A stretch of 64,000 bases of DNA from Candidatus Yanofskybacteria bacterium RIFCSPLOWO2_01_FULL_42_49 (GCA_001795615.1 MGKI01000014.1:69380-133379); one strand, 5' to 3'; counted from the stretch's first letter, positions 13,973 through 59,592 are shown. The notes: generated by a model from the letters alone, not told the origin. Numbers and translations: made by a program.

Positions 13973-13973
13973 C

Positions 13974-22830: not shown

Positions 22831-24027
22831 ATGAATATTATCCAAATCAACACAATAGATAAAAAGGGTGGGGCAGCAATGGTTGCTTATTCTTTACAAC
22901 AAGAACTGGGAAAAAGGGGCCACACAATATCGATGTTTGTCGGGAGAAAGTATTCTGAGGAGAGTAATATTAAATTGCTTAACGACATGCGTTCTATCTC
23001 AGGTAAAGTCCGACGGAAACTTGCTTACTGGCTAGCTAATGACATCGATGTTTTTTCTTCTGACCACATTTTAAAAACTCCGGAATTTAAAAATGCCGAT
23101 ATCGTTCATTGCCACAATCTGCATAGCAACTACTTCAATCTGGGAACCTTGGAAAAAATGTCTCGCCTTAAGCCGGTTGTTTGGACATTCCATGATATGT
23201 GGCCGATTACCGCCCATTGTGGCCACGCTTTTAACGGTAAAATCAACAAGAATGGTTTTTTTACTTGTCCGGCCTTAAATATACCACCGGCTATCGCCTG
23301 GCACAACGAAAAATACCTAGAGAATAAAAAAACAAAAATATACAAAAACTCAAACTTTCACATTGTCACTCCCTCAAAATGGTTGGCGGAAAAAGTGGGT
23401 CAAAGTATTTTAAAAAATAAACCAATATCAATTATTTATAACGGCATTAACACAAACGCATTCAGCCCCTTACCCAAAGAGCAATGCCGCAAAGAACTAA
23501 ACCTGCCCTTGAACAAGAAGATTATTTTATCTGTTATTAAAAAACAAGATGACCAATGGAAAGGATGGGCGTTCGTAGTTGAAACTGCTGAACAATTCAA
23601 AAACAACAAAGATATTGTTTTTATAAACATCGGCAGAATCACCAGCAATAAGAACAATTTATTAGGACTTCCACCCATTAGCGAAGAAGGAGTGTTGAAA
23701 AAATACTATTCCGCCACCGATATTCTTCTCTATCCTTCAATAGCCGACAACTGTCCCTTGGTAGTCTTAGAAGCGATGGCTTGCGGTTTACCGATTGTCT
23801 CATTTAACACCGGCGGCATACCGGAGTTGATAGAACATAAAGCAAACGGATATATAGCCAAACATAAAGACACTGACGATCTCAAAAACGGTATAGAGTA
23901 TTTACTAAACTTGTCTAATCAAGAGTCAGAACAAATGAGACAACATTCAATAAAAAAAATAAAAAATGGATTTACGACGGAGAAAACGACTAACGAATAT
24001 ATTGAGCTTTACAATCACATCTTATAG
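22831..24027 (+). CDS. GT4-family (GT-B) glycosyltransferase
   Basis: C-terminal EAMACGLPIVSFNTGGIPELIE, with an E-x7-E-like donor-binding region. Confidence 0.8.
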   Translation: MNIIQINTIDKKGGAAMVAYSLQQELGKRGHTISMFVGRKYSEESNIKLLNDMRSISGKVRRKLAYWLANDIDVFSSDHILKTPEFKNADIVHCHNLHSNYFNLGTLEKMSRLKPVVWTFHDMWPITAHCGHAFNGKINKNGFFTCPALNIPPAIAWHNEKYLENKKTKIYKNSNFHIVTPSKWLAEKVGQSILKNKPISIIYNGINTNAFSPLPKEQCRKELNLPLNKKIILSVIKKQDDQWKGWAFVVETAEQFKNNKDIVFINIGRITSNKNNLLGLPPISEEGVLKKYYSATDILLYPSIADNCPLVVLEAMACGLPIVSFNTGGIPELIEHKANGYIAKHKDTDDLKNGIEYLLNLSNQESEQMRQHSIKKIKNGFTTEKTTNEYIELYNHIL

Positions 24028-25521
24028 ATTGTGCGGCTGTATTTCTTTAAATTTATATGGTTCTTGAAAAGAGGACCAGTAAATTTTATTGGGCAGTAGT
24101 CCTAATTCGGTTCCGAAATATTGGTCAAAAATAAAACGAAAAGTGTTTACATTAGAAACACTCTTGGACAATATGTTTTTTGACTTCCCCGGCAGATAAA
24201 ACGCGCTGAAATTTGAAACCATGGTCAAGGGGTCAACCGATTCCGGATTAAATCCATGATCGGATTGAATAATAATGACTGGCGGAATTTCCGAGTTTGA
24301 AATTATCAACTCAACAGTCTCCATTATTTTTCTGTTTGTATATTGCAATTGGCCCAGGTAATACTCTTTTTCTTTAACTAAATCCATTTCTTCCGTGTCA
24401 GAAAATTTAGCGGCAACTTTTTCTCCGTTAGGACCGAATAAATACGGCCAGTGCGGAACAGGCAGATGAGCATAAATAAATTTAGGACCCCCCAAATTAA
24501 GTTCCGGCATTTCTCCCAATCTTTTAAAAGCAAGGTCAATAACCGTTCTCATTCTATAATTTAAATAATCCCTAAATATGTTGCGACGATTACTAACCAA
24601 TCTGATCAGGGTTGAGTCTAACAATTTATAACTAAATTCGCCAACAGGCGGTCGTCCTATTTCTGCATCAACGTTAGAGATCGGCCAGCCAACACGAAAA
24701 CTAACTATTTTATAACCCCGCTGTTTCAAAAACCCCACAACCTTGTTTTTTCGTATCATGTCCAACAGAAACCTTGTGTCGGCTTGGGATTCCAGCAACA
24801 TTCCGTCTCCCAAGTATTTCATGTTAAGGACCGAGGGCAAAGAAAGAAGTGTTTGGGAATAGTTGCTCCGGCTTTCATCGGAAATTATAAAACCTTTTTC
24901 TTCAAGAAAGTCCGAAAATTCTTTATTGTCATAGCCGAAAAAATTTTTTAAAATTCCATTGCCCGCATATCTGTCCGGGATAATGTAATAAATATCCGGT
25001 AAATTAGCAGTCGCACTGTTTCCCTTGTCGATAGTTTGTAAAATGTCAGTTTTTATCCCTCCAACCCCACCAATCCCATATATAACTATGCTTATAAGCG
25101 GTATCAGCACAAGAACAACCGATGACAGATTAAGAATTTTTGTAAACGGTAACAGATATTTTTTAGTTTTGAGAACAAAAAACCCACCCGACAAAATCAT
25201 AACGAACCACACCGGAAATAAAAATTTGTGTCTTCCGACCAAAAGATCGGCCATTTTAACGCCATGAAAAATATCGTAAAAAATGCCGTAATAAAGGAAA
25301 AAAACAACGACGAGAGAGCTTATTATGCCAGCTTTATGACAGTCCGGAATTAACATTTTTAAAACAAAAAAGGCCGTGGCCGCAAATAAAAGAGCAACGA
25401 ATATCGGTACTAAAACTACATCAAATGCGATATGATTTCCAAGTTCACTAATGTTGTGAGCAAATAAAAAAACAATGAAAGAAACAGAAAGCAAAAAGGG
25501 GTGGAAAATGTATTTAGCCAC
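24022..25521 (-). CDS. Membrane-anchored sulfatase/alkaline-phosphatase-superfamily protein (LtaS/MdoB-like), tandem paralog A
   Basis: About 5 N-terminal TM helices, then an extracytoplasmic domain with LPDIYYIIPDRYAG and IIIQSDHGF (sulfatase-type metal/substrate motifs). It is paralogous to 25525-27096. Confidence 0.55.
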   Translation of the reverse strand: MAKYIFHPFLLSVSFIVFLFAHNISELGNHIAFDVVLVPIFVALLFAATAFFVLKMLIPDCHKAGIISSLVVVFFLYYGIFYDIFHGVKMADLLVGRHKFLFPVWFVMILSGGFFVLKTKKYLLPFTKILNLSSVVLVLIPLISIVIYGIGGVGGIKTDILQTIDKGNSATANLPDIYYIIPDRYAGNGILKNFFGYDNKEFSDFLEEKGFIISDESRSNYSQTLLSLPSVLNMKYLGDGMLLESQADTRFLLDMIRKNKVVGFLKQRGYKIVSFRVGWPISNVDAEIGRPPVGEFSYKLLDSTLIRLVSNRRNIFRDYLNYRMRTVIDLAFKRLGEMPELNLGGPKFIYAHLPVPHWPYLFGPNGEKVAAKFSDTEEMDLVKEKEYYLGQLQYTNRKIMETVELIISNSEIPPVIIIQSDHGFNPESVDPLTMVSNFSAFYLPGKSKNILSKSVSNVNTFRFIFDQYFGTELGLLPNKIYWSSFQEPYKFKEIQPHNL

Positions 25522-25524: not shown

Positions 25525-27096
25525 TTATAACAGGCCCCATGGAACCTGTTTTATATTTTTAAAATCTGAGTGATTCTTTAAAAGCAAATAATCATAATAC
25601 TTATAAATCTTATCCTCCAAGAGATCATAATCGGCATTAAAATAGTTCTTAAAAATAAAACGGAAAGTGTTTACATTTGTGAGATTATCCGGCAAAAGCG
25701 TCTTTTTGCCGCCCGGTAAATAGAGTGCGCTAAAATTCTTGCCGCTTGCCCTAGTTGCTGTGGTAAATGTTTCTAACTCAAAAAAACGGTCGGACAAATC
25801 GTTCATCCAAAATACATAACCATGATCTGACTGAATTATAATAATAGGTTCCGTTTTAGACTTAGCTAATATCTCGTCAACAACCAAACTCAACTGTTTA
25901 TTTGCAAAGATAAGCTGGTCCAGCCAAAAACGACCATACTCCTCTTCTGTTAAAATAGAGGCCTCTTCAACGTTTACTTCTTCACCGTTACGATCGAATA
26001 AAAACGGCGGATGTGGAAGGAAAAGATGAAGAAAGACAAATTTGGGTCCGCCAACATCCAACTCTGGAATTTCTTTTAACTTCTCAAAACTGTATAAAAT
26101 TCTTTTTCTTTCCTCGTTATTTATGCTAAATCCAAAAAACTGTCTTTTGCTTACAAAGTATTTAAGCAATGAAGTTTCAATTATCCGATGGGAAAAATTA
26201 TTAAGACGACTTGGATTAAATCTTATATCGGCATACTTGTTATAGCTTGTTATGCCTAGGCCGGAATCAAACTGTATAATTTTATAACCCTGTGCCTTGA
26301 GAAATTGCTGAACACGGTTATTGTGGATTAGATTCGCTATGTCGTTCTTCTCTATAGTTTCAGGAAGCAGGTTATCCAAATAATCCATATTCATCGTTGC
26401 GGGTATGGACAGAACGGTATTTTGATAATTTGAATGGTTTTTCGAAAGAACCGAAAACCCTTTTTTCTTTAAAAAATTAATGAACTCACTATTGTCGTAA
26501 TTATGTACTTCTTTAAGTATATCCACGCGAGCATATGAGTCAGGAACAATATAATAAATATCGGGCAAATTTTGGTCTTGATTTAAACCTGTTTGAACCG
26601 CACCATCTTCAAAAACAACACTGCTTCGGCTATTTGAATAAGCGCTGAAACCAATACTTACAAAAGAAAAAGCAATTAACGCAAATCCAGCGGTTCTAAA
26701 AAACTTATATACAGCTCCCAAATCCTTGGATCTCATAATAAAATAGCTGGCCGATATAAAAGAAAAAATTCCCAAAGGATATAAATATTTGTCCCTGACA
26801 ATGCCTATATCTATCAGCCATCCAACAGAAAGAAGCAGTTCTTTAAAATTCCCGTATGACAGAAAAACTATAAAAAACAAAGAAAGAATCAACCCCGACT
26901 TTATATAATCTTTAACAAAGATACTTAAAATAATGGTAAAAACCAGAACTATAAAAGTAACAATGAAAAGAGGCAACCACAGCATCTCATACTTCAATTC
27001 GCTTATATTGTGGGCAAAAAGAAAAAGTATGGGAAAAATTCCATACAATAACGGCAGATATGGGATATTTTTGATAAAATCTTTAATTTTTATCAT
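25525..27096 (-). CDS. Membrane-anchored sulfatase/alkaline-phosphatase-superfamily protein (LtaS/MdoB-like), tandem paralog B
   Basis: Same architecture as paralog A: LPDIYYIVPDSYAR, IIIQSDHGY and N-terminal TM helices. Confidence 0.55.
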   Translation of the reverse strand: MIKIKDFIKNIPYLPLLYGIFPILFLFAHNISELKYEMLWLPLFIVTFIVLVFTIILSIFVKDYIKSGLILSLFFIVFLSYGNFKELLLSVGWLIDIGIVRDKYLYPLGIFSFISASYFIMRSKDLGAVYKFFRTAGFALIAFSFVSIGFSAYSNSRSSVVFEDGAVQTGLNQDQNLPDIYYIVPDSYARVDILKEVHNYDNSEFINFLKKKGFSVLSKNHSNYQNTVLSIPATMNMDYLDNLLPETIEKNDIANLIHNNRVQQFLKAQGYKIIQFDSGLGITSYNKYADIRFNPSRLNNFSHRIIETSLLKYFVSKRQFFGFSINNEERKRILYSFEKLKEIPELDVGGPKFVFLHLFLPHPPFLFDRNGEEVNVEEASILTEEEYGRFWLDQLIFANKQLSLVVDEILAKSKTEPIIIIQSDHGYVFWMNDLSDRFFELETFTTATRASGKNFSALYLPGGKKTLLPDNLTNVNTFRFIFKNYFNADYDLLEDKIYKYYDYLLLKNHSDFKNIKQVPWGLL

Positions 27097-28758: not shown

Positions 28759-28790
28759 AAAAAAAATAAAAACCCTCTAATCTGAGGGTT
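28759..28790 (-). terminator. Rho-independent terminator of the radical SAM gene 28789-30369
   Basis: On the - strand, AACCCTCAGATTAGAGGGTT is followed by TTTATTTTTTTT. It overlaps the stop codon. Confidence 0.65.
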
Positions 28791-30369
28791 ACATATTCCG
28801 CTGTTTGGGCACCATTGAGCGAATAATATCAATCCTTTCCGGCTTATTTAAATACTCCCAAACTTTTCTGGAAACAAATTCCAGATAATTAGGGTCGACC
28901 CGTGTTTGAATGGATGGGTGCAACCAGTCCAAATCCGCTATATCAATTCCCGGCAGAAGTAAATTATTTTGAATAACATAGTCGTAGAGAACTGTGCCCG
29001 GAAAAGGAGTTACTATGGTAAAATTAACATATTCAGAACCGGCATCCATATGTTTTTTGGCAACCAAGATCGTCATTAGTAATTCTTCATAGGTCTCATC
29101 CGGATAACCAATGAGATAGCAACTGGAGACCAGAATGCCCAACGAATTTGCTTTTTTTATTAAAGCAGATATGTCATAGGTTTCATGGCTAATTTTACCG
29201 GCAGCCCACTTATCTATAATCCTTTGGGAACCGGACTCGACGGGGAATGAAAGCCGATTAAATCCGGCCTCGGCCATTGTTTCCAGCATCTCATCATCTA
29301 TTACTATCCGGCCAGTGCCGTCATTTTTGTGCAGATGTGATAAATTTACTCCATTAACATCGCCCAGCTTGAATCCAAATTTTATAAACATCTTAAAAAT
29401 GGCCAATGCTCTTTTTTTCTTGGCTAAAAGAGAATCGTCTTCAATATAAATATATTTAGCACCAAGCTCTTTAATGGCTAACGCTTCTCTTTCAACACGC
29501 TCGACTGATTGATATCGGAATTTTCCAATATTACCCATGGGCGAACCTTCTATCTCTGTGGAAATATGACAAAAACTGCAATCATAAGGACAACCCCTGG
29601 ATGTCGTTAATGATACATATGGTTGCGGCTTGTTTAGTTGGCCAACCCTGAGAACACTGCCGTGAGGACGATTTATTTCTGCAATACGATCCATGGGTAG
29701 TAAGTCTCTGGCTGGAATTGGTAGCCTATCTAAATCGTTATCAATTAGCCCCATTGGGTTGATTTTAATTCTACCATTACGCATAAAAGCAACGCCTGAT
29801 ATGTTTGAGAAATCGTGGCTTCCCCGGCGAAGAACATTACCAACTTCAACAATCGTTCTTTCCGCTTCTGAAAGACAAATGAGGTTAGCGCCGGCATCAA
29901 AAAATCTCTTCATCTGTGTCCTGGCATTTATGCCGCCCATCATAATAAATTTATCAGGATAGGCTTCCGAAATTGATCTAACCGTTTCTTCAACCATATA
30001 TGTCTGGGGGGTGAAGATAGAGCTTATGCCGATAACATCAAATTCTCGAGCTTCTTTGAGAATCATTTCTGGCGCAAGACCAACCCTCACCTTGCCAGCA
30101 GAAAGAGGAGTAACACGGTTAAAAGCTTCCTCCATCGTGTGGTGTTTACTGCCAATACAACAATCGAGAATATCTACCTCAAAACTATTTTCACGCAAGG
30201 CGGCAGCCAGATAGAGATTACCCAAAGATACTTCCGGTTTAACCGCACCATATTTTGGATCATGGCGTTGAGGCGAATACATCAGAAGAAATTTGGGGTC
30301 TTTGATATTTTTTATCAATGGCGGTGATTCTTGCTTTTTTTGTATCTTAATACCCGTCTGTATTTCCAT
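28789..30369 (-). CDS. B12-binding domain radical SAM protein (class B radical SAM family)
   Basis: The N-terminal Rossmann-like B12-binding region LLMYSPQ...LGNLYLAAAL...ILDCCIGS is followed by CPYDCSFC (CxxxCxxC). Length is 526 aa. Confidence 0.8.
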   Translation of the reverse strand: MEIQTGIKIQKKQESPPLIKNIKDPKFLLMYSPQRHDPKYGAVKPEVSLGNLYLAAALRENSFEVDILDCCIGSKHHTMEEAFNRVTPLSAGKVRVGLAPEMILKEAREFDVIGISSIFTPQTYMVEETVRSISEAYPDKFIMMGGINARTQMKRFFDAGANLICLSEAERTIVEVGNVLRRGSHDFSNISGVAFMRNGRIKINPMGLIDNDLDRLPIPARDLLPMDRIAEINRPHGSVLRVGQLNKPQPYVSLTTSRGCPYDCSFCHISTEIEGSPMGNIGKFRYQSVERVEREALAIKELGAKYIYIEDDSLLAKKKRALAIFKMFIKFGFKLGDVNGVNLSHLHKNDGTGRIVIDDEMLETMAEAGFNRLSFPVESGSQRIIDKWAAGKISHETYDISALIKKANSLGILVSSCYLIGYPDETYEELLMTILVAKKHMDAGSEYVNFTIVTPFPGTVLYDYVIQNNLLLPGIDIADLDWLHPSIQTRVDPNYLEFVSRKVWEYLNKPERIDIIRSMVPKQRNM

Positions 30370-30484: not shown

Positions 30485-32614
30485 TTAGTGATGGCCGGCA
30501 ATTTCTATATAAGGATTTTTACTGCCATACAGATATGCTCCGCGGCGGTTACAATACCAAACCATTTTTTGGCACCACTCTTCCCATGAATCCCATCTTT
30601 CGGTCGTACGGTCTATGCAGTAGCTATAATTTCCGGGTTTATAATCAGCAGTTCCGCCAAGTAATACGGTACGATAAACATCCCAAATATTGTAATTCAG
30701 TTCAAGATTTAAATCTTCATTTTTAAAAGGTAACTTAATAAGAGATCGGTTCAACTTCAGTGAGTCAAGGAGAACGTCAACCGGTTTATCGGAAGTCATA
30801 AACTGCATCATTACCATTTCCGCTTCCCGATAAAAAGCTTCCAGCTTATTTTCAGCGCAAAGTTTGATAAGTATATATTCTTCCGGCGGCCAATAAATGT
30901 TGAGCCATTCCTCAGAATGAAAATATTCTCCGGAACATCCCGCCTGTATGTCACGGGCCAAGTTAGCAAAAAATCTGTAAATCTCGGATAAAATGGGTAA
31001 CTCCCCGGAACAACTTGAATTTTTTACAAATGCTTCGAGCGCCTGACCATATGACACACCATAATATTCGTGCAGAGTCATGATGGGTATTTGTAAAAGC
31101 TTGTTAAAGTAGATGAGGCTGGTCATCCAGCAAAATACCCAAGCCTTGATCCATTCTTCTTTGGGCATAGTGTTGGTGGCTACAACCAGTTCCTGATATT
31201 CTTCCACGCCGCTGATAGAATCGTTGCGTTTGCCGTGATGACTGATCATTTTTGTACGAACTATCTCATATCCATAACGTTCCTGATATTCCGGATTACC
31301 CATCTCCGTATTGCGTAGAATGGTGAGAAAGTTGAGTTGGATATGATTATGCTGACCATTAGTGATGAGTGTAGAGGTTCCGTCAACAATGCTTTGATAT
31401 GTTTCTTCAGGCATCGGGAGAATAATATCAGTCATAGTATAAACACCTTCTGCGGCCAGCTGTTTCTGCATTACATAATATTCATCGAGTTTCATATTAT
31501 CCCTGCGCACCGCCTTAAGTGTCGCTGGGTTTAAAGACTGTTGAGACATAACTGTAACCCTGTTTAAACCGGCCTTGGCAAGAATTTTAAGAGCTTCAAT
31601 GGTATGCTTTTTGGGATTCTTGGAATTTTGAGTAGAGACTGCTTCCAGATAACCATACTTCGCCCTTGTTTCGGCGAAATATTCGGCGATCTGAATGTCC
31701 CGCTCAAGAATTCCAAAATTGGCATTACACAGAAATATATACGGAATCCTGTGTTCACCGACCCACATGATATCGCCGTAAATTTGTTCTAGTAAAAACC
31801 TGCTAACCCTGTCTTCGGTGGCTCCTCCCCAATCGCAATATGTACATTGAAAGGGGCAGCCCCGATCAGTTTCATACATCAGAACCCATTTTTGATCAGG
31901 AAAAACAGTCATGAGTTTGTCAAAGACACCGGTTGTAAACGGCGACGGAGCCTGGGCTAGCTCTTTGTCATTCATTCTTTCAACCTTAGGATTGAAATGA
32001 AAAATACCATTAGCGTCAACATAGCTGGCCGAGGGAATTAGACTTTTATCGTGGCAACTATCGATAGCCATCTGTTCAAGAATATATTTGAACACTCTTT
32101 CGCCTTCTCCGTGTACACAAATATCAATTTCCGGATTTAAATGGTGGAAATCCTCAGTGAAATTCATCCGCTTGCGCAGACTTTCCTTGGAACTCAAATC
32201 GACAGTTCTAACTCTTCTGAACTGTTTTTTGCTGTCAGGCACTTGCGGGCCGCCAAAAACAATAACAACCTCCGGTTTTCTCCTCTTTAGCTCCCGGGCA
32301 ATATCTAGAGAGTTCTCAAAATTCCACATGTATATACTGAAACCAACAATATCTGCATCACTGAGAAATTCAGCAGCCTCTTGAATGCGCATGAATGTAT
32401 AAATAGGCGCAAAAAATTCATAATCATCAGAGTGAGTCAAATGCTTTTGGGCATAAGCCTGGAGCATTCCCACCGAAAGAGGCAAATAGCACTGGCCGGA
32501 GAAACTGTTATTGATCTGGACAAAACCTATTTTTATTTTCTTATCAGGTTTTTTTGATTTAAACTCTAGTAAATTATCGTTTATAGTCCTAAGCGAAATT
32601 ATTCCCAAACTCAT
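30485..32614 (-). CDS. B12-binding domain radical SAM protein with long C-terminal extension
   Basis: The N-terminal B12-like region IKIGFVQINNSFSGQCYLPLSVGML is followed by GCPFQCTYC (CxxxCxxC). The protein is 709 aa, with ~300 aa of uncharacterised C-terminal region. Confidence 0.8.
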   Translation of the reverse strand: MSLGIISLRTINDNLLEFKSKKPDKKIKIGFVQINNSFSGQCYLPLSVGMLQAYAQKHLTHSDDYEFFAPIYTFMRIQEAAEFLSDADIVGFSIYMWNFENSLDIARELKRRKPEVVIVFGGPQVPDSKKQFRRVRTVDLSSKESLRKRMNFTEDFHHLNPEIDICVHGEGERVFKYILEQMAIDSCHDKSLIPSASYVDANGIFHFNPKVERMNDKELAQAPSPFTTGVFDKLMTVFPDQKWVLMYETDRGCPFQCTYCDWGGATEDRVSRFLLEQIYGDIMWVGEHRIPYIFLCNANFGILERDIQIAEYFAETRAKYGYLEAVSTQNSKNPKKHTIEALKILAKAGLNRVTVMSQQSLNPATLKAVRRDNMKLDEYYVMQKQLAAEGVYTMTDIILPMPEETYQSIVDGTSTLITNGQHNHIQLNFLTILRNTEMGNPEYQERYGYEIVRTKMISHHGKRNDSISGVEEYQELVVATNTMPKEEWIKAWVFCWMTSLIYFNKLLQIPIMTLHEYYGVSYGQALEAFVKNSSCSGELPILSEIYRFFANLARDIQAGCSGEYFHSEEWLNIYWPPEEYILIKLCAENKLEAFYREAEMVMMQFMTSDKPVDVLLDSLKLNRSLIKLPFKNEDLNLELNYNIWDVYRTVLLGGTADYKPGNYSYCIDRTTERWDSWEEWCQKMVWYCNRRGAYLYGSKNPYIEIAGHH

Positions 32615-32691: not shown

Positions 32692-33741
32692 CTATAGTTG
32701 CTTCACCCTGTCTAGTAAATTTTTGGCTAAAATATGAGATTTCAAATAACTTTGATATAGCCTATAACCATTTTCAGCCACCCTTTCAGAGATTGAATAA
32801 TTATTCTTAACCCATAAGATCTTATTGGCTAAAGATCTGAAATCAGCCGGCTTACAAGTAATACAAGTTTCTCCATCCTTTAAAAGCTCGAGAATGCCAG
32901 TATTTGCAGCTGTCAGATATGGCAACTTCATAGCCAACGATTCGTAGGCCTTATGGGGAATAGTCCGCTGAAGACGTTCGTGGTCAGATAATTGGCCTAA
33001 ACTCACATGGCATTTCCCCATTAATATTCTTAGTTCTTCGGTCGGTAAAAAATCAAAAAAATATTCAATGTTATTTGGCCTTAATTCTTCGATCAAAACT
33101 TTTAGCTTACCGACCAGCTGACCGCCTACATGCATGATAAATCTTACGTCTTCTCCTTTAAGTAGTTCGGCTGCTCGAACCACATATTCTGCGCCGGTTT
33201 CAGGCTGTAACGCTCCCCGGAACAAAACTGTGAATTTATCAGGCTTATTTATGATTGGATCATAAAAAAACTTATCTTCATCAACGCCAATCCAACTTCT
33301 AAAAATTTTATTTTTAGAAACCTTAAATAACTTTTTAAAATACTCGGCTTGATTATATGACTCCACAACAGTTAAATTTGCAAAATGTACAGCCGCAAAA
33401 TCAAGCAGCCAATAATAAATAGCTTTCTTCGAAAAAGGGGAAGCTAACTCTCTGGAAACTATTAAACCTTCATATAATGAGCGAAATGCAACATAAATTA
33501 TTTTTTTATTGCAAAATGGGCGCATAAAAATTACCAGCAATGGACTGTCAAAGCCAATAAAAACATAATCTGTATCTGATTTATTTTTTCTAAAAAAACT
33601 TAGGGCCTCAAGATACCCGCGAACACCCCCGGATGCAACTCTGAACGACTCGACCCTGACACCATTCTCCTTCAATCCTTTTATATAAACGACATTTAAA
33701 GACGAGCCAACTCTAGTTCTGCTTATATATAATATTTTCAT
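32692..33741 (-). CDS. GT-B fold glycosyltransferase (GT4-like)
   Basis: The C-terminal block ...HKAYESLAMKLPYLTAANTGILELLKDGETCI is a GT4-type donor-binding region. It overlaps the upstream gene by 4 bp. Confidence 0.6.
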   Translation of the reverse strand: MKILYISRTRVGSSLNVVYIKGLKENGVRVESFRVASGGVRGYLEALSFFRKNKSDTDYVFIGFDSPLLVIFMRPFCNKKIIYVAFRSLYEGLIVSRELASPFSKKAIYYWLLDFAAVHFANLTVVESYNQAEYFKKLFKVSKNKIFRSWIGVDEDKFFYDPIINKPDKFTVLFRGALQPETGAEYVVRAAELLKGEDVRFIMHVGGQLVGKLKVLIEELRPNNIEYFFDFLPTEELRILMGKCHVSLGQLSDHERLQRTIPHKAYESLAMKLPYLTAANTGILELLKDGETCITCKPADFRSLANKILWVKNNYSISERVAENGYRLYQSYLKSHILAKNLLDRVKQL

Positions 33742-34514
33742 CTATTTTGTTTTAACAAACTCAACTCTTTCTGCCAATTATAATCCCCCCAATGTCTATA
33801 TCTCATCTTAATGTCCTCGTTTCTGTGGCCCGGATGACAACCAAGTTCAACAATTTTATCTGAATGTTCTTCGGCTAATTTTTTAGCTTTATCTATGTCT
33901 TTTTTGCCTAATTTACCGGCATTCACAAAACCGACAAAGTAATCGTTGCACTGCAGACCAGCCCTGCGTATCTTGTTCTTCGCCGCCGTTGACAAGAAAT
34001 TTAAAAATAACAGTTGAAGTTTTCTAAACAACTTGCCACCAGACAAATTAAACGGTTCATTAACAACTCTTATATACGGGATATTATACTCTATGGCCAA
34101 TTTTATGCATATATTCATGATCCCCGGCAACAAGTGCAAATGTTGATTGCCGTTTATAAAAGTTGGCTTTATTCCGGCCTGAATAACTTTTTTAATCTGC
34201 GCCTCAAGCTCTTGCCGAATATGATCTTTTTTAACCAGCCCTAAAATATATTTTAGAAAAAAAACACGATGATTTTTATACATTAACCCCCCAGAAACGA
34301 TCGACCTTTGTTCAACTAGATTTAAATGGGCTCCGATATTCTCAAGTCTCGCATCTAGAATTTGTTGGACGGCATCGTCAAACGCTTCCCCGTTAGCCAT
34401 TAAAGATGCCCCGCTGATTTTATTTTCTTTCAATAAAAAAATTATTCCGTCGTTAACGGACTCGTGGAGACCAAGGTCGTCAGCAATAATTTTTAAATTA
34501 GGGGGTTCGATCAT
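33738..34514 (-). CDS. YdjC/ChbG/HpnK-family carbohydrate deacetylase (NaxD-like candidate)
   Basis: N-terminal IIADDLGLHESVNDGI (ADDxG), and later LHLLP and CHPG blocks. Length is 258 aa and it overlaps the GT2 gene upstream. Confidence 0.7.
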   Translation of the reverse strand: MIEPPNLKIIADDLGLHESVNDGIIFLLKENKISGASLMANGEAFDDAVQQILDARLENIGAHLNLVEQRSIVSGGLMYKNHRVFFLKYILGLVKKDHIRQELEAQIKKVIQAGIKPTFINGNQHLHLLPGIMNICIKLAIEYNIPYIRVVNEPFNLSGGKLFRKLQLLFLNFLSTAAKNKIRRAGLQCNDYFVGFVNAGKLGKKDIDKAKKLAEEHSDKIVELGCHPGHRNEDIKMRYRHWGDYNWQKELSLLKQNR

Positions 34515-35484
34515 TCTCTAGATTTTTAGTTTCAGAAACTATATATACCGGGCGGCCTTTTATTTCGTTGAACATTTTATATAAGTACTCACCCATAATA
34601 CCAATGACCATAAGTTGAATACTGCCCAACGCCAGAACAACAATCGTTAAAGAAGAAAGACCCTCAATAAGATGTTCCGGATACAAGTATTTTTCTATAA
34701 CAACGGATAAGCCATAACCGATGCTCCCCAGAAAGATTACCAAACCTATCCAAAAAGAGATTCGGAGAGGAAAGGCGGAAAATGAGGTTACTCCGTTCAA
34801 AATAAAACTAAATAACCTTTTAACGGAGATTGGCTGGCCATATTTGCGGGCCCTTACTGCGTAAGGAACGTATTTTTTCTTAAAACCGACCCATTGAGCC
34901 AATCCTCTGAAAAATTTCTCTCTCTCGGGTAATTTTTTAATCACATCAACAACCCGTCTTTTATACAAAACAAAATCGCTGGCGTTTTTAAATTCAAGTC
35001 CTGTCATAGTGCTTAAAAATTTATAGATAGCCCTGCCCGCGACTTCCCTGAAAAAAGAATTTTGTTCATTGGTTATCCTCTCTCCGATAACAATATCGTG
35101 TCCTGCTTCGGCTTGTTTTATGAATTCTGAAATTACTTGTGGTGGATGCTGTAAATCGCTATCCATAGTTACCACCATTTCTCCGCTTGAAGCATCTATT
35201 CCGGCGCTTAAAGCCGCTTGATGCCTGAAATTCCTTGAAAAACGGATGATCTTGACCCTTGGGTCCTTGTCTGCGTATTCGTTCAAGATTTCCGAGGTTC
35301 TATCGCGAGAACAGTCGTCAACAAAAATTATCTCATAACTTTTACCGATAGAATCGCAAACAGAGTAAAGCTCCTTCATCAATTCCGGAAGGGACTTTTC
35401 TTCATTGAAAATAGGCAAAACTACCGATAAATAGATGGCCTTTGGTTGACTAATCATTTGTATAATTATACATAGCCAACCCAA
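34498..35484 (-). CDS. Polyprenyl-phosphate glycosyltransferase (GT2; ArnC/GtrB/FlmF2/DPM1-like) with C-terminal TM helices
   Basis: LSVVLPIFNEE, FVDDCSRDRT and MDSDLQHPP (DxD / QxxRW-region equivalents), plus two C-terminal hydrophobic helices. Confidence 0.8.
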   Translation of the reverse strand: MGWLCIIIQMISQPKAIYLSVVLPIFNEEKSLPELMKELYSVCDSIGKSYEIIFVDDCSRDRTSEILNEYADKDPRVKIIRFSRNFRHQAALSAGIDASSGEMVVTMDSDLQHPPQVISEFIKQAEAGHDIVIGERITNEQNSFFREVAGRAIYKFLSTMTGLEFKNASDFVLYKRRVVDVIKKLPEREKFFRGLAQWVGFKKKYVPYAVRARKYGQPISVKRLFSFILNGVTSFSAFPLRISFWIGLVIFLGSIGYGLSVVIEKYLYPEHLIEGLSSLTIVVLALGSIQLMVIGIMGEYLYKMFNEIKGRPVYIVSETKNLENDRTP

Positions 35485-35494
35485 GATTGTCTAG

Positions 35495-37192
35495 TCAGTT
35501 TATAGTCAGAGAACGGCAGTCAAAGATGTATGAATCTATATATTTATCAGTGAATTTTTTGTTCAGTTCGCATCTGGATATTAATTTCCAATACAAGCTG
35601 TTTTTGTCAATAGCCGGAAAATCAACTATCATATAGTACCCCCTGTGATAAGTGAGTCTTTGGCTGTAATCACGAGAAGGAGCTGTGTAAAATCTTCCTG
35701 TGTACTTATCTGCTATTTTTAAATAATAGACTCCCGCGTCATAATATGTAACAACATCGTTAATCTCTTCATCATTGACCACGCGCTCAACAGACGCTTT
35801 AGTAATATTGTTTACGCTACCATAAAAAGCGCCCATTAAATTTTCACTTGAAAGCAGGAGATTATAACCAACACCGAAAACAACAAAAAAGGCAATCGCT
35901 AATTTTTTCTTATTAAACAAAAGCCACAGAAAACCCACAGCCCATATCCACAAAACAAACTGCGCTGAAACATAAAATCCTATCGGCCCCGAACCTCCTG
36001 TCATAGGAATAAGAAAGTTAAAGTCCAGATCTTTGACTTTTTGCACATAGGCCTCCTTTGGGTTAAGGGGCACAATGTCGTGAGCGATAAAAAGAGTAAA
36101 GGCCAAAAGAACCGCAAAACCTAATATACTTAATAAAAGTCGTTTCTTGTCCAACCCTGAAAGCAATGAATAAATGACATGGCCGCTTATAATAACCGCC
36201 GGCGCTATTATGAACATAAAGTATCTCTCTATCGGAAGCCGGGCAAAGTCAAAAATTACAAGATAGAAAATAAAATTGAATAAAGTATAGATATACCAAA
36301 TACGATATTTTATGAAAAAATCTTTTTTTCCGCCGACGGAGACCCGGCTATGCACGGGTCCCTCTCCAGGCAAAGCGGATCCGCCTCCAGCAGAGAATAA
36401 TCCATACACCATCGGCAAAAATAAAAGCGGAGAGAACCAGATAAAAAACTTAACTAGGCGGAGAAGCAACTCAAAATAAGCTCTTGATGCAAAATCAAAT
36501 ATCTTAAAGTTGGTAGAATACTCTACAAATCTCGGATCGGTCTTTCCGTAAAATAAATAGAGCCCGGCAATAAAAACTCCTGAAATACCCAGGATCAGAC
36601 CCGCTCTTTTTATCTCCTGTGTAAATTTGCCCTTATCATACAAAGTCCACAGATACTCGATTGCCAACGCTCCGACAAAAATCACAAAACTCAACTTCGT
36701 TAACAAACCGGCAATTATCACCACGGCCAGCGGCAGAATAAATTTTTTATCGCCGTCCTTAACTGTTCTGATGTAAAAATAGTATGTTAAAAGAACAAAA
36801 AACGGCAAAACGGCGCCGTCAATGTCTATCATCAGGTTGGCGATAAGACCATAAACACTGATAACATAAAGACCCGATGAAAGATAAGCGATCTTTCTGT
36901 TATCGGTGATCTTTAGAGAAACCGCATAAATAAGAAGAAGATTTAAAATACCAAAAACAAAAGGTACTACCCTCAAGTTATCATAGCCAAACATCTTGCC
37001 GACCAGCGAAAGAGTACTCTGCATTATCGGCGGATGGGGAGAGTCAACTTCGCCGAATTCTGCCGTATATACTTGAGAAACCCACCTGTATTCATCCTGA
37101 TGATATAACTGGTCCAAGCCCAAAAATCTAGTGGCGATAAACAACAAAACCAACAGCCAAAGCCAGTAATTATTTTTTAGTATTACTGTCAT
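35495..37192 (-). CDS. GT-C fold polytopic membrane glycosyltransferase (ArnT/PMT/FlmK-like)
   Basis: 565 aa with more than 10 predicted TM helices. An acidic DE motif sits in the first extracytoplasmic loop (LYHQDEYRW), as in the GT39/GT83 families. Confidence 0.55.
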   Translation of the reverse strand: MTVILKNNYWLWLLVLLFIATRFLGLDQLYHQDEYRWVSQVYTAEFGEVDSPHPPIMQSTLSLVGKMFGYDNLRVVPFVFGILNLLLIYAVSLKITDNRKIAYLSSGLYVISVYGLIANLMIDIDGAVLPFFVLLTYYFYIRTVKDGDKKFILPLAVVIIAGLLTKLSFVIFVGALAIEYLWTLYDKGKFTQEIKRAGLILGISGVFIAGLYLFYGKTDPRFVEYSTNFKIFDFASRAYFELLLRLVKFFIWFSPLLFLPMVYGLFSAGGGSALPGEGPVHSRVSVGGKKDFFIKYRIWYIYTLFNFIFYLVIFDFARLPIERYFMFIIAPAVIISGHVIYSLLSGLDKKRLLLSILGFAVLLAFTLFIAHDIVPLNPKEAYVQKVKDLDFNFLIPMTGGSGPIGFYVSAQFVLWIWAVGFLWLLFNKKKLAIAFFVVFGVGYNLLLSSENLMGAFYGSVNNITKASVERVVNDEEINDVVTYYDAGVYYLKIADKYTGRFYTAPSRDYSQRLTYHRGYYMIVDFPAIDKNSLYWKLISRCELNKKFTDKYIDSYIFDCRSLTIN

Positions 37193-38093
37193 TTTTTTGG
37201 AGAATCAATTCTAACTCATCTTTAAGATTAGGCATTTTAAGGCCAAGTTTAGCGGCTTTATCAATATTAAACCACATCTCCTTGGGCCGAGCAGCAAAAT
37301 TTCCAGGCATATTATCAACAGAGATTATCTTGGCTTCACCAGAAAAATTAGGAAATTTACTAATAACCACCTGCCCTATTTCAGCTTTGGACAATCGATC
37401 CCTGCTTCCGATATGAAGAATCCCTTTTGACAGAACTTCTGGGACTTTTAACAACAGTCCTGCGAGAGTTTTAGCGCTTATCGCGTTAATATATACATCG
37501 CTAAAAAGGTTGAACGACCTATTGTTGCTAACTGAATCCACAAGCCACTCTATAAAATTAGCTTGGGGTCGGCCAATACTGTGAATACCAATGGGTACGA
37601 CCCTGACCACTATTCCTTGATTGTAAGCTAAAACAGCTTCTTCTCCCAACAACTTGGTCCATGAGTAAAAATTTTTAGGATCCGGCGTGTCGCTTTCTTT
37701 ATAGTTCCCTTTCACTCCAGAAAAAACGGAACCAGTTGATATGTATATTAATTTCGCCCCCTGCTTCTTTGCCAATTCGGTAATATTTCTCGTCCCCACA
37801 ACATTGACTCGCCAACAATCCTCTCTGTTTTTCTCGCACTTATCAATATTTGTCATTGATGCACAATGAAATATCGTATTGATTTTACCTATTTTCTTAT
37901 CTAAAAAATTAACGGCTTTGGCGACACCAATGTCGCATTTTAAGTTTACATAATCCTTATCAGTTAAATTTGGATTCTCGTTATAAGTACCGATCACACC
38001 ATAACCGCTTTTCTTGGCGCAACGAGTCAACTCCAAACCCAAAAGACCGCTTGCTCCGGTTACTAAAATTTTATTTTTTGTTGATCTTTTCAT
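37170..38093 (-). CDS. RmlD-like NAD(P)-dependent sugar-nucleotide reductase (dTDP-4-dehydrorhamnose reductase family), paralog 1
   Basis: KILVTGASGLLG Rossmann motif, length ~300 aa, and a conserved C-terminal block shared with 43949-44845. Confidence 0.6.
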   Translation of the reverse strand: MKRSTKNKILVTGASGLLGLELTRCAKKSGYGVIGTYNENPNLTDKDYVNLKCDIGVAKAVNFLDKKIGKINTIFHCASMTNIDKCEKNREDCWRVNVVGTRNITELAKKQGAKLIYISTGSVFSGVKGNYKESDTPDPKNFYSWTKLLGEEAVLAYNQGIVVRVVPIGIHSIGRPQANFIEWLVDSVSNNRSFNLFSDVYINAISAKTLAGLLLKVPEVLSKGILHIGSRDRLSKAEIGQVVISKFPNFSGEAKIISVDNMPGNFAARPKEMWFNIDKAAKLGLKMPNLKDELELILQKNDSNTKK

Positions 38094-38259: not shown

Positions 38260-39273
38260 ATGAAAAAAGACGTTCCGTCAATTTTGCTTGTTGGTGTAGG
38301 GTGGTGGGGCGGAAACCATTTGCGAATTTTGCTCAAGTTGCAAGCCATGAAGCTTTGCCGCTTGGTGGGCGTTCAGGCTAATAATCAGAACGTACTCCAA
38401 TACGTTGGCGGAGAATTTGGGGTCAAGACATTTTGCAATGATCAAGGACTAGAAGAAGCTGACGCTGTTGTTATCGCAACTCCAACGCACAACCACTTTG
38501 CAATAGCAGAGAAAGCGTTATTGGCAGGAAAAGATGTGCTTATAGAAAAACCACTGACCCAAACCCTAGAAGAAGCGTATAAGCTCAAAAAAATTCATGC
38601 CAATTCCTCGCAGATATTTATGGTGGGCCACACCTTTCGCTATAATCCGGCTGTGGATTGTGTCAAGAAACTTCTGTCAGATGGGGAAATAGGAAACATC
38701 CGATTTTTCCGAGGGCATTTCATGGGTCTTAGATCCAAAGAACAAGACGCTGGAATTCTCGCCACGGTTGCAATTCATTTTATTTACACATCAAATTATT
38801 TCATAGGCAGACTTCCAAAAAAGGTGTGGGCAAAAACAAATTACTTTCTGGATTCAAAACTAGAAGACCATTGCCTTGTACGGCTTGATTATAATCCGGA
38901 ATTTAGTCTTATTGAATCGGACTACTTTACTCCGGGCAAGTGGAGAACGTTTGATATCATCGGAACACAGGGAGCCATCTTCCTAGACGCACTTAACCAA
39001 AAAGTAGAATTGCACCAAAAAAGACACATATACACGGAATGTGGGTTTGAAGTATATGACGGAAATACAATGTATCCTAATTTAGAGTTTCAAGAACCCC
39101 TATATTTGGAACTTAGCCACTTCGTGAAATGTGTCCAACAAAGGACAGAACCTCTTACTGGGATTGAAGAGAGTATAAATGTTTTGGAAATTATTGAAGC
39201 AGCTTACGAATCGTCCCGTTCCGACCAAACAGTAATACTTGACACCCGGCCAACAACAGAAAGGAGAAGGTAG
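38260..39273 (+). CDS. Gfo/Idh/MocA-family NAD(P)-dependent oxidoreductase
   Basis: N-terminal ILLVGVGWWGGNHLR Rossmann fold and the EKPL motif (LIEKPLTQT). An AAAGGA SD precedes the start. Confidence 0.75.
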   Translation: MKKDVPSILLVGVGWWGGNHLRILLKLQAMKLCRLVGVQANNQNVLQYVGGEFGVKTFCNDQGLEEADAVVIATPTHNHFAIAEKALLAGKDVLIEKPLTQTLEEAYKLKKIHANSSQIFMVGHTFRYNPAVDCVKKLLSDGEIGNIRFFRGHFMGLRSKEQDAGILATVAIHFIYTSNYFIGRLPKKVWAKTNYFLDSKLEDHCLVRLDYNPEFSLIESDYFTPGKWRTFDIIGTQGAIFLDALNQKVELHQKRHIYTECGFEVYDGNTMYPNLEFQEPLYLELSHFVKCVQQRTEPLTGIEESINVLEIIEAAYESSRSDQTVILDTRPTTERRR

Positions 39274-40506
39274 ATGTCAAAGAAAAGCGTTCGTTGTCAA
39301 ATATGTGAAAGCACCACAAAGCAATTTTTAGACCTAGGCGAACATCCTCCATGCAACTTTCTAAACGAGCACGAACTGCAGCAGGAAATTTTGTACCCCA
39401 TGGTAGTCCATTTTTGCCCAGTGTGCAGTCTCGTACAATTAGGCAAACCTGTTAACCAGGAAGCGCTTTTTTTGCCTCATACTGGCTATCACCATATAGC
39501 CGCATTGTCATCAAGCTTCTCAAAACACCTTGATGTTCTGGCTTCTAAAACAGCAAAGAAATTTAATCTTAAGCCAAAAGATCTGGTAGTTGAGATCGGA
39601 GCAAACGACGGCGCCTTGCTTGAAGCGTTCCAAAAGAAAAATGTAAGAGTACTAGGAGTTGATCCGTCTGATATTGCCGAAATCGCCGCCAATAGAGGAC
39701 TCCCCGTCTTAAAGAAGTTCTTCAATGAGGAAATTGCATCTGAAATAGTCGACACCTGTGGCCAAGCAAGAATTATGACTGCATTAAATGTTTTTGCCCA
39801 CTTATCTTCGCTTCACTCTGTTGTAAGAGGAATTGAAAAATTACTTACCGCTGATGGAGTTTTTGTCAGTGAAAATGGTTACATATTGGATCTGATCAGA
39901 GATATGCAGTATGACTTCATCTATCAAGAACATCTGCGTTATTATTCCTTGCATGCATTAATTTACTTGTTTAACATGTCTGGTATGGATGTGTTTGATG
40001 TAGAACGGATCCCTGAACACGGCGGTTCCATAAGAGTATTTGCCTGCAAAAAAGGTGCTTATCGGATCTCGAATTCGGTAACAGTTCTCCTTAAAGAAGA
40101 GGTGCGATTCGGACTTAATACATTTGACACTTATATGGAATTTTCCAAAAAGGTCAAAGATCATCGAAAAAGTTTAAGAAAGATGTTGGAAAAAATTCGA
40201 GCAGAAGGCGGAACAATTGCCGGTCTTACATTTCCAGCCAGAGCAGAAACGCTTCTTACTTATTGCGGAATTGGTCCAAAAATAATTAGTTATGTTACCG
40301 AGTGGAGCGACATTAAAATTGGCAAGTTCACTCCGGGAACCCACATCAAGGTTGTGGACCAGGACATACTCTTCGGCGACAAAGCACCAGACTATGGCCT
40401 CATGCTATCCTGGCACATTCAAGAAGAGCTTATAGCTCGCTTTAGGAAAAACGGTTTCAAGGGAAAATTCATTATCCCCTTGCCGACACCGGCTATTATA
40501 TCCTGA
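39274..40506 (+). CDS. NDP-hexose C-methyltransferase (TylC3/Methyltransf_13-14 architecture)
   Basis: An N-terminal Cys4 zinc-ribbon CQIC...CNFL...CPVC is followed by the SAM motif VVEIGANDGALL and the family-typical C-terminal domain. Confidence 0.7.
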   Translation: MSKKSVRCQICESTTKQFLDLGEHPPCNFLNEHELQQEILYPMVVHFCPVCSLVQLGKPVNQEALFLPHTGYHHIAALSSSFSKHLDVLASKTAKKFNLKPKDLVVEIGANDGALLEAFQKKNVRVLGVDPSDIAEIAANRGLPVLKKFFNEEIASEIVDTCGQARIMTALNVFAHLSSLHSVVRGIEKLLTADGVFVSENGYILDLIRDMQYDFIYQEHLRYYSLHALIYLFNMSGMDVFDVERIPEHGGSIRVFACKKGAYRISNSVTVLLKEEVRFGLNTFDTYMEFSKKVKDHRKSLRKMLEKIRAEGGTIAGLTFPARAETLLTYCGIGPKIISYVTEWSDIKIGKFTPGTHIKVVDQDILFGDKAPDYGLMLSWHIQEELIARFRKNGFKGKFIIPLPTPAIIS

Positions 40507-40572: not shown

Positions 40573-41514
40573 TTATTCGCCTGCCGACATCTTCTTTATC
40601 TTCTTTCTTGCAATATCTATGCCATAAGCAAAGAAGTCATATCTCCTGGGGCTTGTAAAATGTTTCATAACTGTGTTTTCACCGGGCCTACCTTTAATTA
40701 TATATGTGTCGACTGGAAAAAAATCAAAATTAACCTGAGATATTAATGACCCCCAACCGGACATACCCACAAGATAGTCTTTAACTTCTCTTTTTGTGTT
40801 TCTAAAATAATTTACGAACATATCCAGCGTAAATTTTTTTCTATTAATTAATATGAGTCCGGAGTTCATAAAATCAGCATGCTTTTCTATTAACTGATGT
40901 CTTTGCTCATATTCCTTACTAACCATTAAATCATAGACCCCCTGACGAGAAACCAGGGCATCAAATTGACTTTTTCCGTTAACAAAATTGATAATCTCAT
41001 CGGGCCTCTTGAAGAAAAGTATATCCGTATCGCATATCATTACTTTTTTAGCGCTACTTAACAAGAAGAGGTCAAAAAACTCCAATATTACCGCATGCCC
41101 ACCACCCCTATACTTTCTTATATCGTCCGGCAAGCCGGGATATTTTTCAATAAGCCGATCCGCCTCAACCTTGAATAAAACCTTCAAATTTCTAAACCTC
41201 TTCTCTAAAACAGAAGCTGATTTTTTATTAAATGACCCGTCGTCGTGGACAATAATATTAGGGCATAATTTAGAAAAATACAAAAAAGATTTCAATGCCC
41301 ACTCCAACATTCTAATATCACTTTTTTGACACAGAACATGGATTTCAAAACCAGGATCAGCGGAACATTCCTGTCCGAGCAACTTGGGCAGAAACAGATG
41401 ACTAAAGAGTTTATTCTTAAAATAGTTGAAATAATCTATGGCATGATATTTCTGACTAAACAACCTCCTTATAAAAAAGAGCTCTATCTTTATTTTTTTA
41501 AATATAGCTAACAT
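40573..41514 (-). CDS. Uncharacterised protein, possibly a GT-A-like nucleotide-sugar transferase
   Basis: 313 aa. The call rests on an IVHDDGS segment resembling a GT2 DxD region. No other family signature was recognised. Confidence 0.3.
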   Translation of the reverse strand: MLAIFKKIKIELFFIRRLFSQKYHAIDYFNYFKNKLFSHLFLPKLLGQECSADPGFEIHVLCQKSDIRMLEWALKSFLYFSKLCPNIIVHDDGSFNKKSASVLEKRFRNLKVLFKVEADRLIEKYPGLPDDIRKYRGGGHAVILEFFDLFLLSSAKKVMICDTDILFFKRPDEIINFVNGKSQFDALVSRQGVYDLMVSKEYEQRHQLIEKHADFMNSGLILINRKKFTLDMFVNYFRNTKREVKDYLVGMSGWGSLISQVNFDFFPVDTYIIKGRPGENTVMKHFTSPRRYDFFAYGIDIARKKIKKMSAGE

Positions 41515-59589: not shown

Positions 59590-59592
59590 CTT

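Follow-up and report, generated by a model that had tools for sequence, protein, structure and literature searches.

How might a bacterium that lives attached to other cells, and that probably has no lipid A, expose a cationic amino sugar on its surface? The question is raised by three adjoining genes at positions 33738-37192 of a 64-kb (64,000-nucleotide) stretch of DNA, here called the window, from Candidatus Yanofskybacteria bacterium RIFCSPLOWO2_01_FULL_42_49 (GCA_001795615.1, MGKI01000014.1:69380-133379), a member of the candidate phyla radiation (CPR), or Patescibacteria. There is almost no experimental knowledge of surface chemistry in this group, and the surface is central to the biology of ultra-small CPR bacteria, which live attached to other cells. 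The genes encode a polyprenyl-phosphate glycosyltransferase of family 2 (GT2), a YdjC-family deacetylase and a membrane glycosyltransferase of the GT-C fold. A preliminary description of the window had likened them to FlmF2, NaxD and FlmK of Francisella. On balance, we favor the view that the trio is a three-step, lipid-carrier-mediated pathway that decorates the cell surface with a free-amine sugar. The YdjC and GT-C proteins are 100% matches to proteins from Candidatus Yanofskybacteria metagenome-assembled genomes, and the trio locus is present on GCA_001794105.1, contig MGJE01000048.

Three consecutive open reading frames (ORFs) on the minus strand fill 33738-37192 exactly. In order of transcription, they are as follows:

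35495..37192, minus strand: ArnT/PMT-like GT-C fold membrane glycosyltransferase, 565 amino acids (aa); Pfam PMT_2 E 1.3e-8, 35.7 bits against a cutoff of 26.1
34498..35457, minus strand: GtrB/ArnC-type polyprenyl-phosphate GT2, 319 aa; Pfam GT2 E 9.5e-36
33738..34514, minus strand: YdjC-family (ChbG/HpnK/NaxD superfamily) predicted N-acetylhexosamine deacetylase, 258 aa; Pfam YdjC E 8.7e-49

The preliminary description had placed three such genes side by side, and its account of the proteins holds; the order in its title (GT2, deacetylase, GT-C) does not, since the genes are transcribed as GT-C, GT2, YdjC. The GT2 coordinates are those of the ATG used by gene callers; an alternative TTG at 35484 gives 34498-35484 and 328 aa. 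Reading frames overlap by 23 nucleotides between the GT-C gene and a short-chain dehydrogenase/reductase (SDR) gene before it, by 17 between GT2 and YdjC, and by 4 between YdjC and a family 4 glycosyltransferase (GT4) gene after it. Overlaps of this kind suggest that the proteins are co-translated.

We then considered what each protein is. Along its whole length, the GT2 can be aligned with the GtrB structure (5ekp; 220 bits, residues 7-314 of 319) and with the ArnC structures 9bhc and 8vxh (169 bits, residues 10-310). It has a GT-A catalytic domain, a juxtamembrane region and a C-terminal transmembrane hairpin with peaks at about 236-254 and 262-292. The protein is of the GtrB/ArnC type, in line with the polyprenyl-phosphate GT2 with C-terminal transmembrane helices first described. 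Its best NCBIfam model is PgfS (NF047588), matched over the full length at 236.5 bits, below the equivalog cutoff of 500. The ArnC model NF007986 gives 179 bits, also short of its equivalog cutoff of 529, and the HpnI model does not match the GT2.

The deacetylase matches Pfam PF04794 at 167.2 bits (cutoff 29.7), with residues 7-256 covering profile positions 2-257 of 266. In its AlphaFold2 (AF2) model, which has a predicted local distance difference test (pLDDT) score of 85.6, the closest folds in the PDB are EF3048, ChbG (7vi8, TM-score 0.72) and CmCBDA, with TM-scores of 0.64-0.72. The catalytic and metal-binding motifs ADDxG, GxH, HxH and HP are intact. Across 26 CPR homologues there is no variation at D12, D13, H63, H125, H127, E223, H227 or P228, and the same residues are kept in Acidobacteriota and planctomycete homologues, in Paraburkholderia HpnK and in E. 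coli ChbG. All of the characterized YdjC enzymes encountered in this analysis deacetylate an N-acetylhexosamine (HexNAc). Since the scores against the HpnK model (TIGR03473, 95 bits against 232.6) and the ChbG model (NF002559, 79.7 bits against 227) fall far under their equivalog cutoffs, the protein is not placed among the cytoplasmic chitobiose deacetylases. A hydropathy scan, made without a signal-peptide predictor, found no transmembrane segment, and the protein is predicted to be cytoplasmic. Helix 160-184 is hydrophobic and amphipathic; it occurs in HpnK-like and CPR forms, is missing from E. coli ChbG, and might anchor the enzyme to the surface of the membrane.

The third protein passes the PMT_2 gathering score, spans the membrane many times (about 12 hydrophobic or transmembrane segments by hydropathy) and has an acidic motif in loop 1, which places it in the ArnT/PMT branch of the GT-C fold. 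In that motif, HQDEYRW, residues Q32, D33, E34, Y35 and W37 are invariant among 36 homologues, as are H53-P54-P55, R74, D123, D125, K166, E322-R323-Y324, C541 and C559. The Cys541/Cys559 pair lies in the C-terminal alpha/beta domain and fits an extracytoplasmic location. The AF2 model (pLDDT 85.4, predicted template modelling score 0.87) finds ArnT (5ezm/5f15; E 4e-8, TMq 0.54) as its closest PDB fold, ahead of STT3/PglB, Pmt4 and EmbB. An hhalign comparison with E. coli ArnT is weak (E 0.02 over 81 residues) and sets the DE opposite the ArnT loop PDETRYAE. The protein is therefore ArnT/PMT-like with a loop-1 DE motif, as originally noted, and lacks sequence-level homology to ArnT (GT83) proper. 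The window copy carries a Gly/Ser/Pro-rich insertion of about 22 residues (36340-36420, residues ~267-290; low pLDDT at 269-287) that is missing from most homologues, which measure 543-551 aa. The enzyme is predicted to move a sugar from polyprenyl phosphate to an acceptor outside the membrane.

Do these genes belong together? A scan with the YdjC family profile, taking one genome per species, gave 22 Patescibacteria loci (YdjC 47-73% identical to that of the window) and 44 further loci from Acidobacteriota, planctomycetes and similar sources (26-37% identity); loci are cited below by number. Each of the 22 Patescibacteria loci has a full-length GtrB-type GT2 (54-86% identity) immediately upstream of its YdjC gene. 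A GT-C homologue lies at most 10 kb from the GT2-YdjC pair in 20 of them, 15 at 44-75% identity and 5 at 30-33%. Its place varies: it may adjoin the pair upstream, as in the window, or downstream (L022, L023), be parted from it by a methyltransferase gene only (L010, L026, L027), or sit 6-8 kb off (L019, L020, L024, L025). The linkage thus survives rearrangement. L019 also holds a second GT2 gene. In L010, L022, L023, L026 and L027, the genes form minimal GT2-YdjC-(methyltransferase)-GT-C blocks that have no GT4. The two exceptions are L009 with its near-identical contigs, where an insertion of about 16 kb splits GT-C from GT2-YdjC, and L014, where the contig stops just past the methyltransferase that elsewhere precedes GT-C. 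The insertion (L079 11760-20568 / L077 1-8918) encodes a 1750-aa protein, a PemK toxin and beta-lactamase-like, PDDEXK_3 and Big_13 proteins. As an independent check of the linkage, 19 YdjC and 19 GT-C matches from a search of 5.8 billion proteins coincide in the length of their longest contig.

The grouping of GT2, YdjC and GT-C goes far beyond chance, and the trio is conserved in Yanofskybacteria, Falkowbacteria and other Paceibacteria-type CPR lineages. The GT4 recurs in 10 of the 22 loci, a 526-aa radical S-adenosylmethionine (SAM) gene of the window in 5 and a 709-aa one in none, versus 22 for the GT2; the genes that make up the conserved core are therefore GT2, YdjC and a PMT_2-type GT-C. 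The preliminary description had staked its proposal on the genes staying neighbors in related genomes and on the deacetylase standing apart from the chitobiose enzymes, and both expectations are borne out.

Other genes keep company with the core in relatives. A class I SAM methyltransferase of about 250 aa, with a hydrophobic C-terminal segment, lies directly upstream of GT-C in 14 of the 22 loci, and this pairing holds even where GT-C is 7 kb from GT2-YdjC; the lineage of the window does not have it. Methylation of the sugar, or of its free amine, is a conceivable role for the enzyme. A conserved protein of 117-121 aa with three to four transmembrane segments and no Pfam family adjoins GT-C or the module in five relatives only, has no homologue in the window, and is a candidate flippase or accessory subunit. 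Finally, a 592-aa polytopic membrane protein without a Pfam family overlaps the YdjC stop in L077 and L009, the lineage in which the insertion displaces the GT-C, has distant copies in L023 and L027, and may be an unclassified membrane glycosyltransferase. Their positions are as follows:

L008 6596-7339; L013 6554-7309; L010 10755-11507; L026 10795-11550; L019 8941-9681; L020 16770-17495: methyltransferase of about 250 aa
L070 1801-2154; L018 8055-8420; L011 11689-12048; L021 4286-4636; L022 7321-7671: transmembrane protein of 117-121 aa
L077 10756-12534 (= L009 10753-12528): polytopic membrane protein, 592 aa

Acidobacteriota (Thermoanaerobaculia; L028-L072, for example L036 9279-10759) carry YdjC homologues of 30-37% identity that score 145-181 bits with the HpnK model. 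These are always preceded by a short, soluble GT2 of about 237 aa, and no GT-C of the present family lies near them. We set these pairs aside as support for the trio, since a short soluble GT2 without a GT-C is a different system. An apparent 577-aa GT2-YdjC fusion in L060 is an ORF artefact, the GT2 match lying in another reading frame, and the neighborhood of a YdjC gene on an Azospirillum plasmid (a DMT transporter and an AMP-binding protein) was uninformative.

These observations lead to a specific proposal. In the first step, the GT2 would work at the cytoplasmic face of the membrane and load an N-acetylhexosamine from a nucleotide sugar onto polyprenyl phosphate, giving polyprenyl-phosphate-HexNAc; the donor would most likely be UDP-N-acetylglucosamine (UDP-GlcNAc). 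In the second, the soluble, possibly membrane-surface-associated YdjC metallo-deacetylase would strip the N-acetyl group and leave polyprenyl-phosphate-hexosamine with a free amine. Since a polyprenyl-phosphate GT2 and a YdjC are invariably paired in overlapping frames, the product of the former would most simply be the substrate of the latter, and since neither catalytic domain is exported, deacetylation would take place on the cytoplasmic face. In the third step, the carrier-linked amino sugar would be flipped across the membrane, and the GT-C would hand over this single residue to an acceptor at the outer side.

What might that acceptor be? The surroundings of the trio offer candidates. The genes next to it and the signals found around them are these:

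37170..38093, minus strand: RmlD-like SDR of the NDP-sugar reductase family (Pfam RmlD_sub_bind E 3.3e-45), first gene of the likely operon
32692..33741, minus strand: GT4 glycosyltransferase, GT-B fold (Pfam Glycos_transf_1 E 1.1e-16)
30485..32614, minus strand: 709-aa B12-binding radical SAM enzyme, a KedN5-like C-methyltransferase (NCBIfam KedN5 216 bits, below cutoff)
28789-30369: 526-aa B12-radical-SAM enzyme (HpnJ model 101.9 bits against a cutoff of 577.6; P-methyltransferase models score about equally)
40573..41514, minus strand: 313-aa protein with faint similarity to GT8/nucleotide-diphospho-sugar transferases (Pfam Nucleotid_trans E 1e-3, GT8 E 1e-2, both below cutoff)
35465..35493, minus strand: sigma-70-like match TAGACA-17-TATAAT, best in the region (11 of 12), in the gap between GT-C and GT2, its -10 box ending 7 nucleotides before the GT2 ATG
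30465-30446, minus strand: terminator-like hairpin 3' of the 709-aa radical SAM gene

Terminator-like hairpins occur solely in the intergenic gaps 3' of the 709-aa and 526-aa radical SAM genes. Together with the overlapping frames, their positions make it likely that one transcription unit spans 38093 to 30485. The sigma-70-like match may be an internal, near-leaderless promoter for GT2-YdjC-GT4, and we treat it only as a lead; promoter and terminator scan counts in the region are no higher than expected by chance. Homologues of the SDR (42-81% identity) adjoin the module in L007, L008, L010, L011, L013 and L015. Those of the GT4, at 49% identity or more, are frequent among the related loci without being universal. 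The 526-aa radical SAM enzyme is 71-76% identical in the five loci that have it (L007, L012, L013, L015, L016), which exceeds the conservation of YdjC and GT-C. The 709-aa enzyme, which has no counterpart in the 22 related loci, is therefore a lineage-specific addition to the operon. The 313-aa protein has homologues of 38-51% identity near the module in 12 of the 22 loci and may represent an unrecognized glycosyltransferase family.

The entire window is in fact a glycan-biosynthesis island, with many GT4 enzymes, epimerases, methyltransferases and one carbamoyltransferase. It includes:

6752-15672: nonulosonic-acid-type cluster with two NeuB-like synthases, a DegT aminotransferase, a GATase and HisF-like pair, and a GNAT protein
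21922-22818: PF01522 deacetylase, separate from YdjC
24022-25521 and 25525-27096: tandem LtaS/sulfatase-like membrane paralogues (37% identity), each with 4-5 N-terminal transmembrane segments and an external domain
38260-40506: divergent pair of a UDP-GlcNAc 3-dehydrogenase-like GFO/IDH/MocA oxidoreductase (182 bits, archaeal model) and an NDP-sugar C-methyltransferase (Methyltransf_13/14)
55463-62055: three successive large membrane proteins with C-terminal tetratricopeptide repeats (TPR), namely Wzy_C+TPR, 753 aa; about 10 transmembrane segments+TPR, 604 aa; and weak PMT_2+TPR, 612 aa

One of the NeuB-like synthases is fused to a cytidylyltransferase (619 aa). Only one of the LtaS/sulfatase-like paralogues reaches Pfam significance; both could be phospho-alcohol transferases of the GacH/LtaS kind, acting further on the same glycan. 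The divergent pair suggests, tentatively, an amino sugar with a branch or a C-methyl group, and the TPR-bearing proteins may be protein- or polymer-glycosylating enzymes. Several island enzymes depend on lipid-linked sugars, yet the window encodes no flippase candidate. tRNA and Rfam scans of the window found nothing.

Against this background, a glycopolymer or glycoconjugate made by the surrounding 60-kb glycan island is the most likely acceptor of the trio. A surface protein is possible, because the GT-C belongs to the PMT family and the island has Wzy_C/TPR and PMT_2/TPR proteins; so is a membrane lipid, because the fold of the GT-C is ArnT-like. Patescibacteria have been proposed to lack an outer membrane (PMC12102498; PMC6146748), and the acceptor is therefore probably something other than lipid A, a reservation that the preliminary description had already made and that the Candidatus Yanofskybacteria source fits. 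No lpx-like gene was found among the proteins of the 64-kb window, a search that covered the window and not the whole genome.

Several observations count against our proposal. The likeness of the GT-C to ArnT is at the level of fold only, with 13% identity in the structural alignment, and its family profile finds no PDB sequence at E values up to 10. By sequence, the deacetylase appears to form a separate clade, only about 25% identical to HpnK and to ChbG. The donor cannot be read from the sequence of the GT2, which lies at roughly the same distance from GtrB (glucose), ArnC (4-formamido-4-deoxy-arabinose, Ara4FN) and PgfS. No flippase candidate (GtrA, ArnEF, Wzx or ABC type, or small multispanning ORF) was found in the 64-kb window. 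Finally, the GT4 gene overlaps the YdjC stop, and YdjC could instead serve the GT4 product.

This last point is the starting place of a different explanation, in which the GT4 adds GlcNAc to a lipid or small molecule and YdjC deacetylates the resulting GlcNAc-X, as in the PIG-A/PIG-L and MshA/MshB pairs of glycosylphosphatidylinositol (GPI) and mycothiol synthesis, while GT2 and GT-C separately add a neutral or N-acetylated sugar outside. A GT4, a deacetylase, a GT2 and a GT-C are the enzyme classes of the GPI-core pathway, and besides the 4-nucleotide overlap in the window, GT4 homologues follow YdjC in L007, L008, L012, L013, L015, L016 and L021. However, fewer than half of the related loci have the GT4 at all, while the adjacent GT2 is never missing, and contiguous blocks of the core exist without it. 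Even the distant Acidobacteriota YdjC genes are paired with a GT2 and not a GT4, and so is hpnK with hpnI. We consider this explanation unlikely. Another improbable possibility is that GT2 and GT-C decorate a wall polymer with an intact N-acetylhexosamine or a hexose, as GacI/GacL or CsbB/YfhO do, and that YdjC has its role elsewhere, for example on a lipid-linked oligosaccharide of the cytoplasm or in the recycling of amino sugars. Pairs of a GT2 and a PMT_2-type GT-C without a deacetylase are the common arrangement in monoderms, the top NCBIfam match of the GT2 belongs to a streptococcal glycosylation system, and the island has its separate PF01522 deacetylase. Yet the GT2-YdjC adjacency, with overlapping frames, is invariant across YdjC proteins of 47-73% identity, which argues for a shared substrate, and the window contains no phosphotransferase system (PTS) or chitobiose-utilization genes.

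The presence of a radical SAM enzyme with some resemblance to HpnJ raises the idea of a hopanoid-like route: the GT2 would add GlcNAc to a membrane lipid, YdjC would deacetylate it, and the enzyme at 28789-30369 would rearrange the glucosamine into a cyclitol-type head group. Indeed, YdjC scores better with the HpnK model than with that of ChbG (95 versus 80 bits), the radical SAM enzyme matches HpnJ at 102 bits and is well conserved where it occurs, and a planctomycete YdjC homologue is flanked by HpnJ-like radical SAM enzymes. But all Hpn scores are far under their cutoffs, the radical SAM enzyme is present in 5 of the 22 loci only and scores equally with P-methyltransferase models, the GT2 is a full-length GtrB/ArnC type and not an HpnI type, and no hopanoid genes were found in the window. 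We regard this route as extremely unlikely. It is also conceivable, but very unlikely, that there is no dedicated pathway, and that the three genes merely share a fluid island and serve different glycans. The window is crowded with glycosyltransferases and sugar-modifying enzymes, and in five loci the GT-C is just 30-33% identical and lies 6-8 kb from GT2-YdjC. What speaks against it is that the linkage outlasts changed gene orders and the loss of most other island genes, that frames overlap, and that in Francisella this combination of three genes has been proven to be a pathway.

The three-step pathway of amino-sugar decoration is, then, the explanation we prefer, and the trio offers a concrete hypothesis, testable by heterologous expression, on the predicted exposure of a cationic amino sugar. 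It would carry a mechanism familiar from polymyxin-resistant Gram-negative pathogens over to bacteria in which lipid A is probably absent. A broader generalization is doubtful but worth stating. The module could be a general means by which many Paceibacteria-type CPR bacteria without an outer membrane add a free amino sugar, in most lineages perhaps N-methylated by the GT-C-coupled methyltransferase, to a protein at the surface, a glycopolymer of the wall or a glycolipid of the membrane, and so tune surface charge for host attachment or resistance to cationic agents. The YdjC clade would in that case be a widespread family of polyprenyl-phosphate-HexNAc deacetylases outside lipid A biology, of the kind missing from the actinobacterial route that adds galactosamine (GalN) to arabinogalactan.

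How does the locus compare with systems that are already known? The likeness to NaxD, FlmK, LgmB and LgmC is drawn from enzyme class and gene layout, not from their sequences. In Francisella, the FlmF2/NaxD/FlmK pathway, which modifies lipid A with galactosamine, is likewise encoded by neighboring genes for these enzyme classes: a GT2 resembling ArnC that makes undecaprenyl-phosphate-HexNAc, a YdjC-superfamily deacetylase that works on the sugar while it is lipid-linked, and a PMT-family GT-C that passes the amino sugar on outside the membrane. There, flmF2 (FTN_0545) adjoins flmK (FTN_0546, annotated as PMT family), and the next locus number, FTN_0544, is what we take to be naxD. NaxD deacetylates undecaprenyl-phosphate-N-acetylgalactosamine (GalNAc) (PMC11279074). 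A NaxD-dependent route in Acinetobacter baumannii can be grouped with this pathway. The acceptor in Francisella, a diderm, is a lipid A phosphate, whereas the window comes from a Patescibacterium, and unlike the Francisella system, many CPR relatives carry an extra SAM methyltransferase beside the GT-C. The Lgm system of Bordetella likewise combines an ArnC-like GT2 with an ArnT-like GT-C, puts glucosamine on lipid A phosphates, and includes LgmC, presumably a NaxD-like deacetylase; its fourth gene, lgmD, encodes a putative flippase that the window does not have. LgmB has been described in connection with this lipid A glucosamine modification (PMC11401268). The Arn pathway of E. coli and Salmonella (ArnC-ArnD-ArnT-ArnE/F) follows the same logic, in which a masked amino sugar is attached to undecaprenyl phosphate and unmasked at the cytoplasmic face; once flipped, it is passed on by a GT-C. 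The GT2 is homologous to ArnC over its full length (169-179 bits), and ArnT is the top fold match of the GT-C. The sugar, however, is 4-amino-4-deoxy-arabinose (Ara4N), the ArnE/F flippase has no counterpart in the window, and ArnD is annotated in the arn operon as a deformylase, which we assume to be of the PF01522 family and not of YdjC. With these lipid A systems (Flm/NaxD, Lgm, Arn), the locus shares a clustered, conserved GT2, unmasking enzyme and GT-C; it differs in having no nearby flippase and probably in lacking lipid A as the acceptor in a diderm host.

The hopanoid enzymes HpnI and HpnK resemble the trio in a different way. The hpnK gene adjoins and overlaps hpnI, which encodes the GT2 that makes GlcNAc-bacteriohopanetetrol, so that here too a YdjC gene comes after a GT2 gene with which it overlaps, and lipid-bound GlcNAc is deacetylated; HpnK is also the top-scoring named YdjC model. 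HpnI is, however, another kind of GT2 with bacteriohopanetetrol as its acceptor, and neither an HpnI-type GT2 nor an HpnJ equivalog is found at the locus. Indeed, no protein of the trio reaches a tested equivalog threshold. In monoderms, the GacI/GacL, CsbB/YfhO and PgfS systems use a polyprenyl-phosphate-sugar synthase and a GT-C to decorate teichoic acids, rhamnopolysaccharides and adhesins without lipid A; unlike the trio, they include no YdjC step, and the sugar transferred is neutral or N-acetylated. The arabinogalactan of Mycobacterium and Corynebacterium is modified with GalN via polyprenyl-phosphate-GalNAc and the GT-C Rv3779, with the deacetylase and the flippase still unidentified (PMC9671496). 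This PpgS/Rv3632 and Rv3779 route is a precedent in which a free-amine hexosamine is delivered through polyprenyl-phosphate-HexNAc and a GT-C to a wall polysaccharide and not to lipid A, although PpgS is a short soluble GT2 that matches the GT2 of the window only at E 3e-8 and the genes of its pathway are dispersed. The YdjC clade may point to the type of deacetylase missing from it. Set beside all of these systems, the enzymology of the trio is of a known type; what is new is the scope and the acceptor, not the principle.

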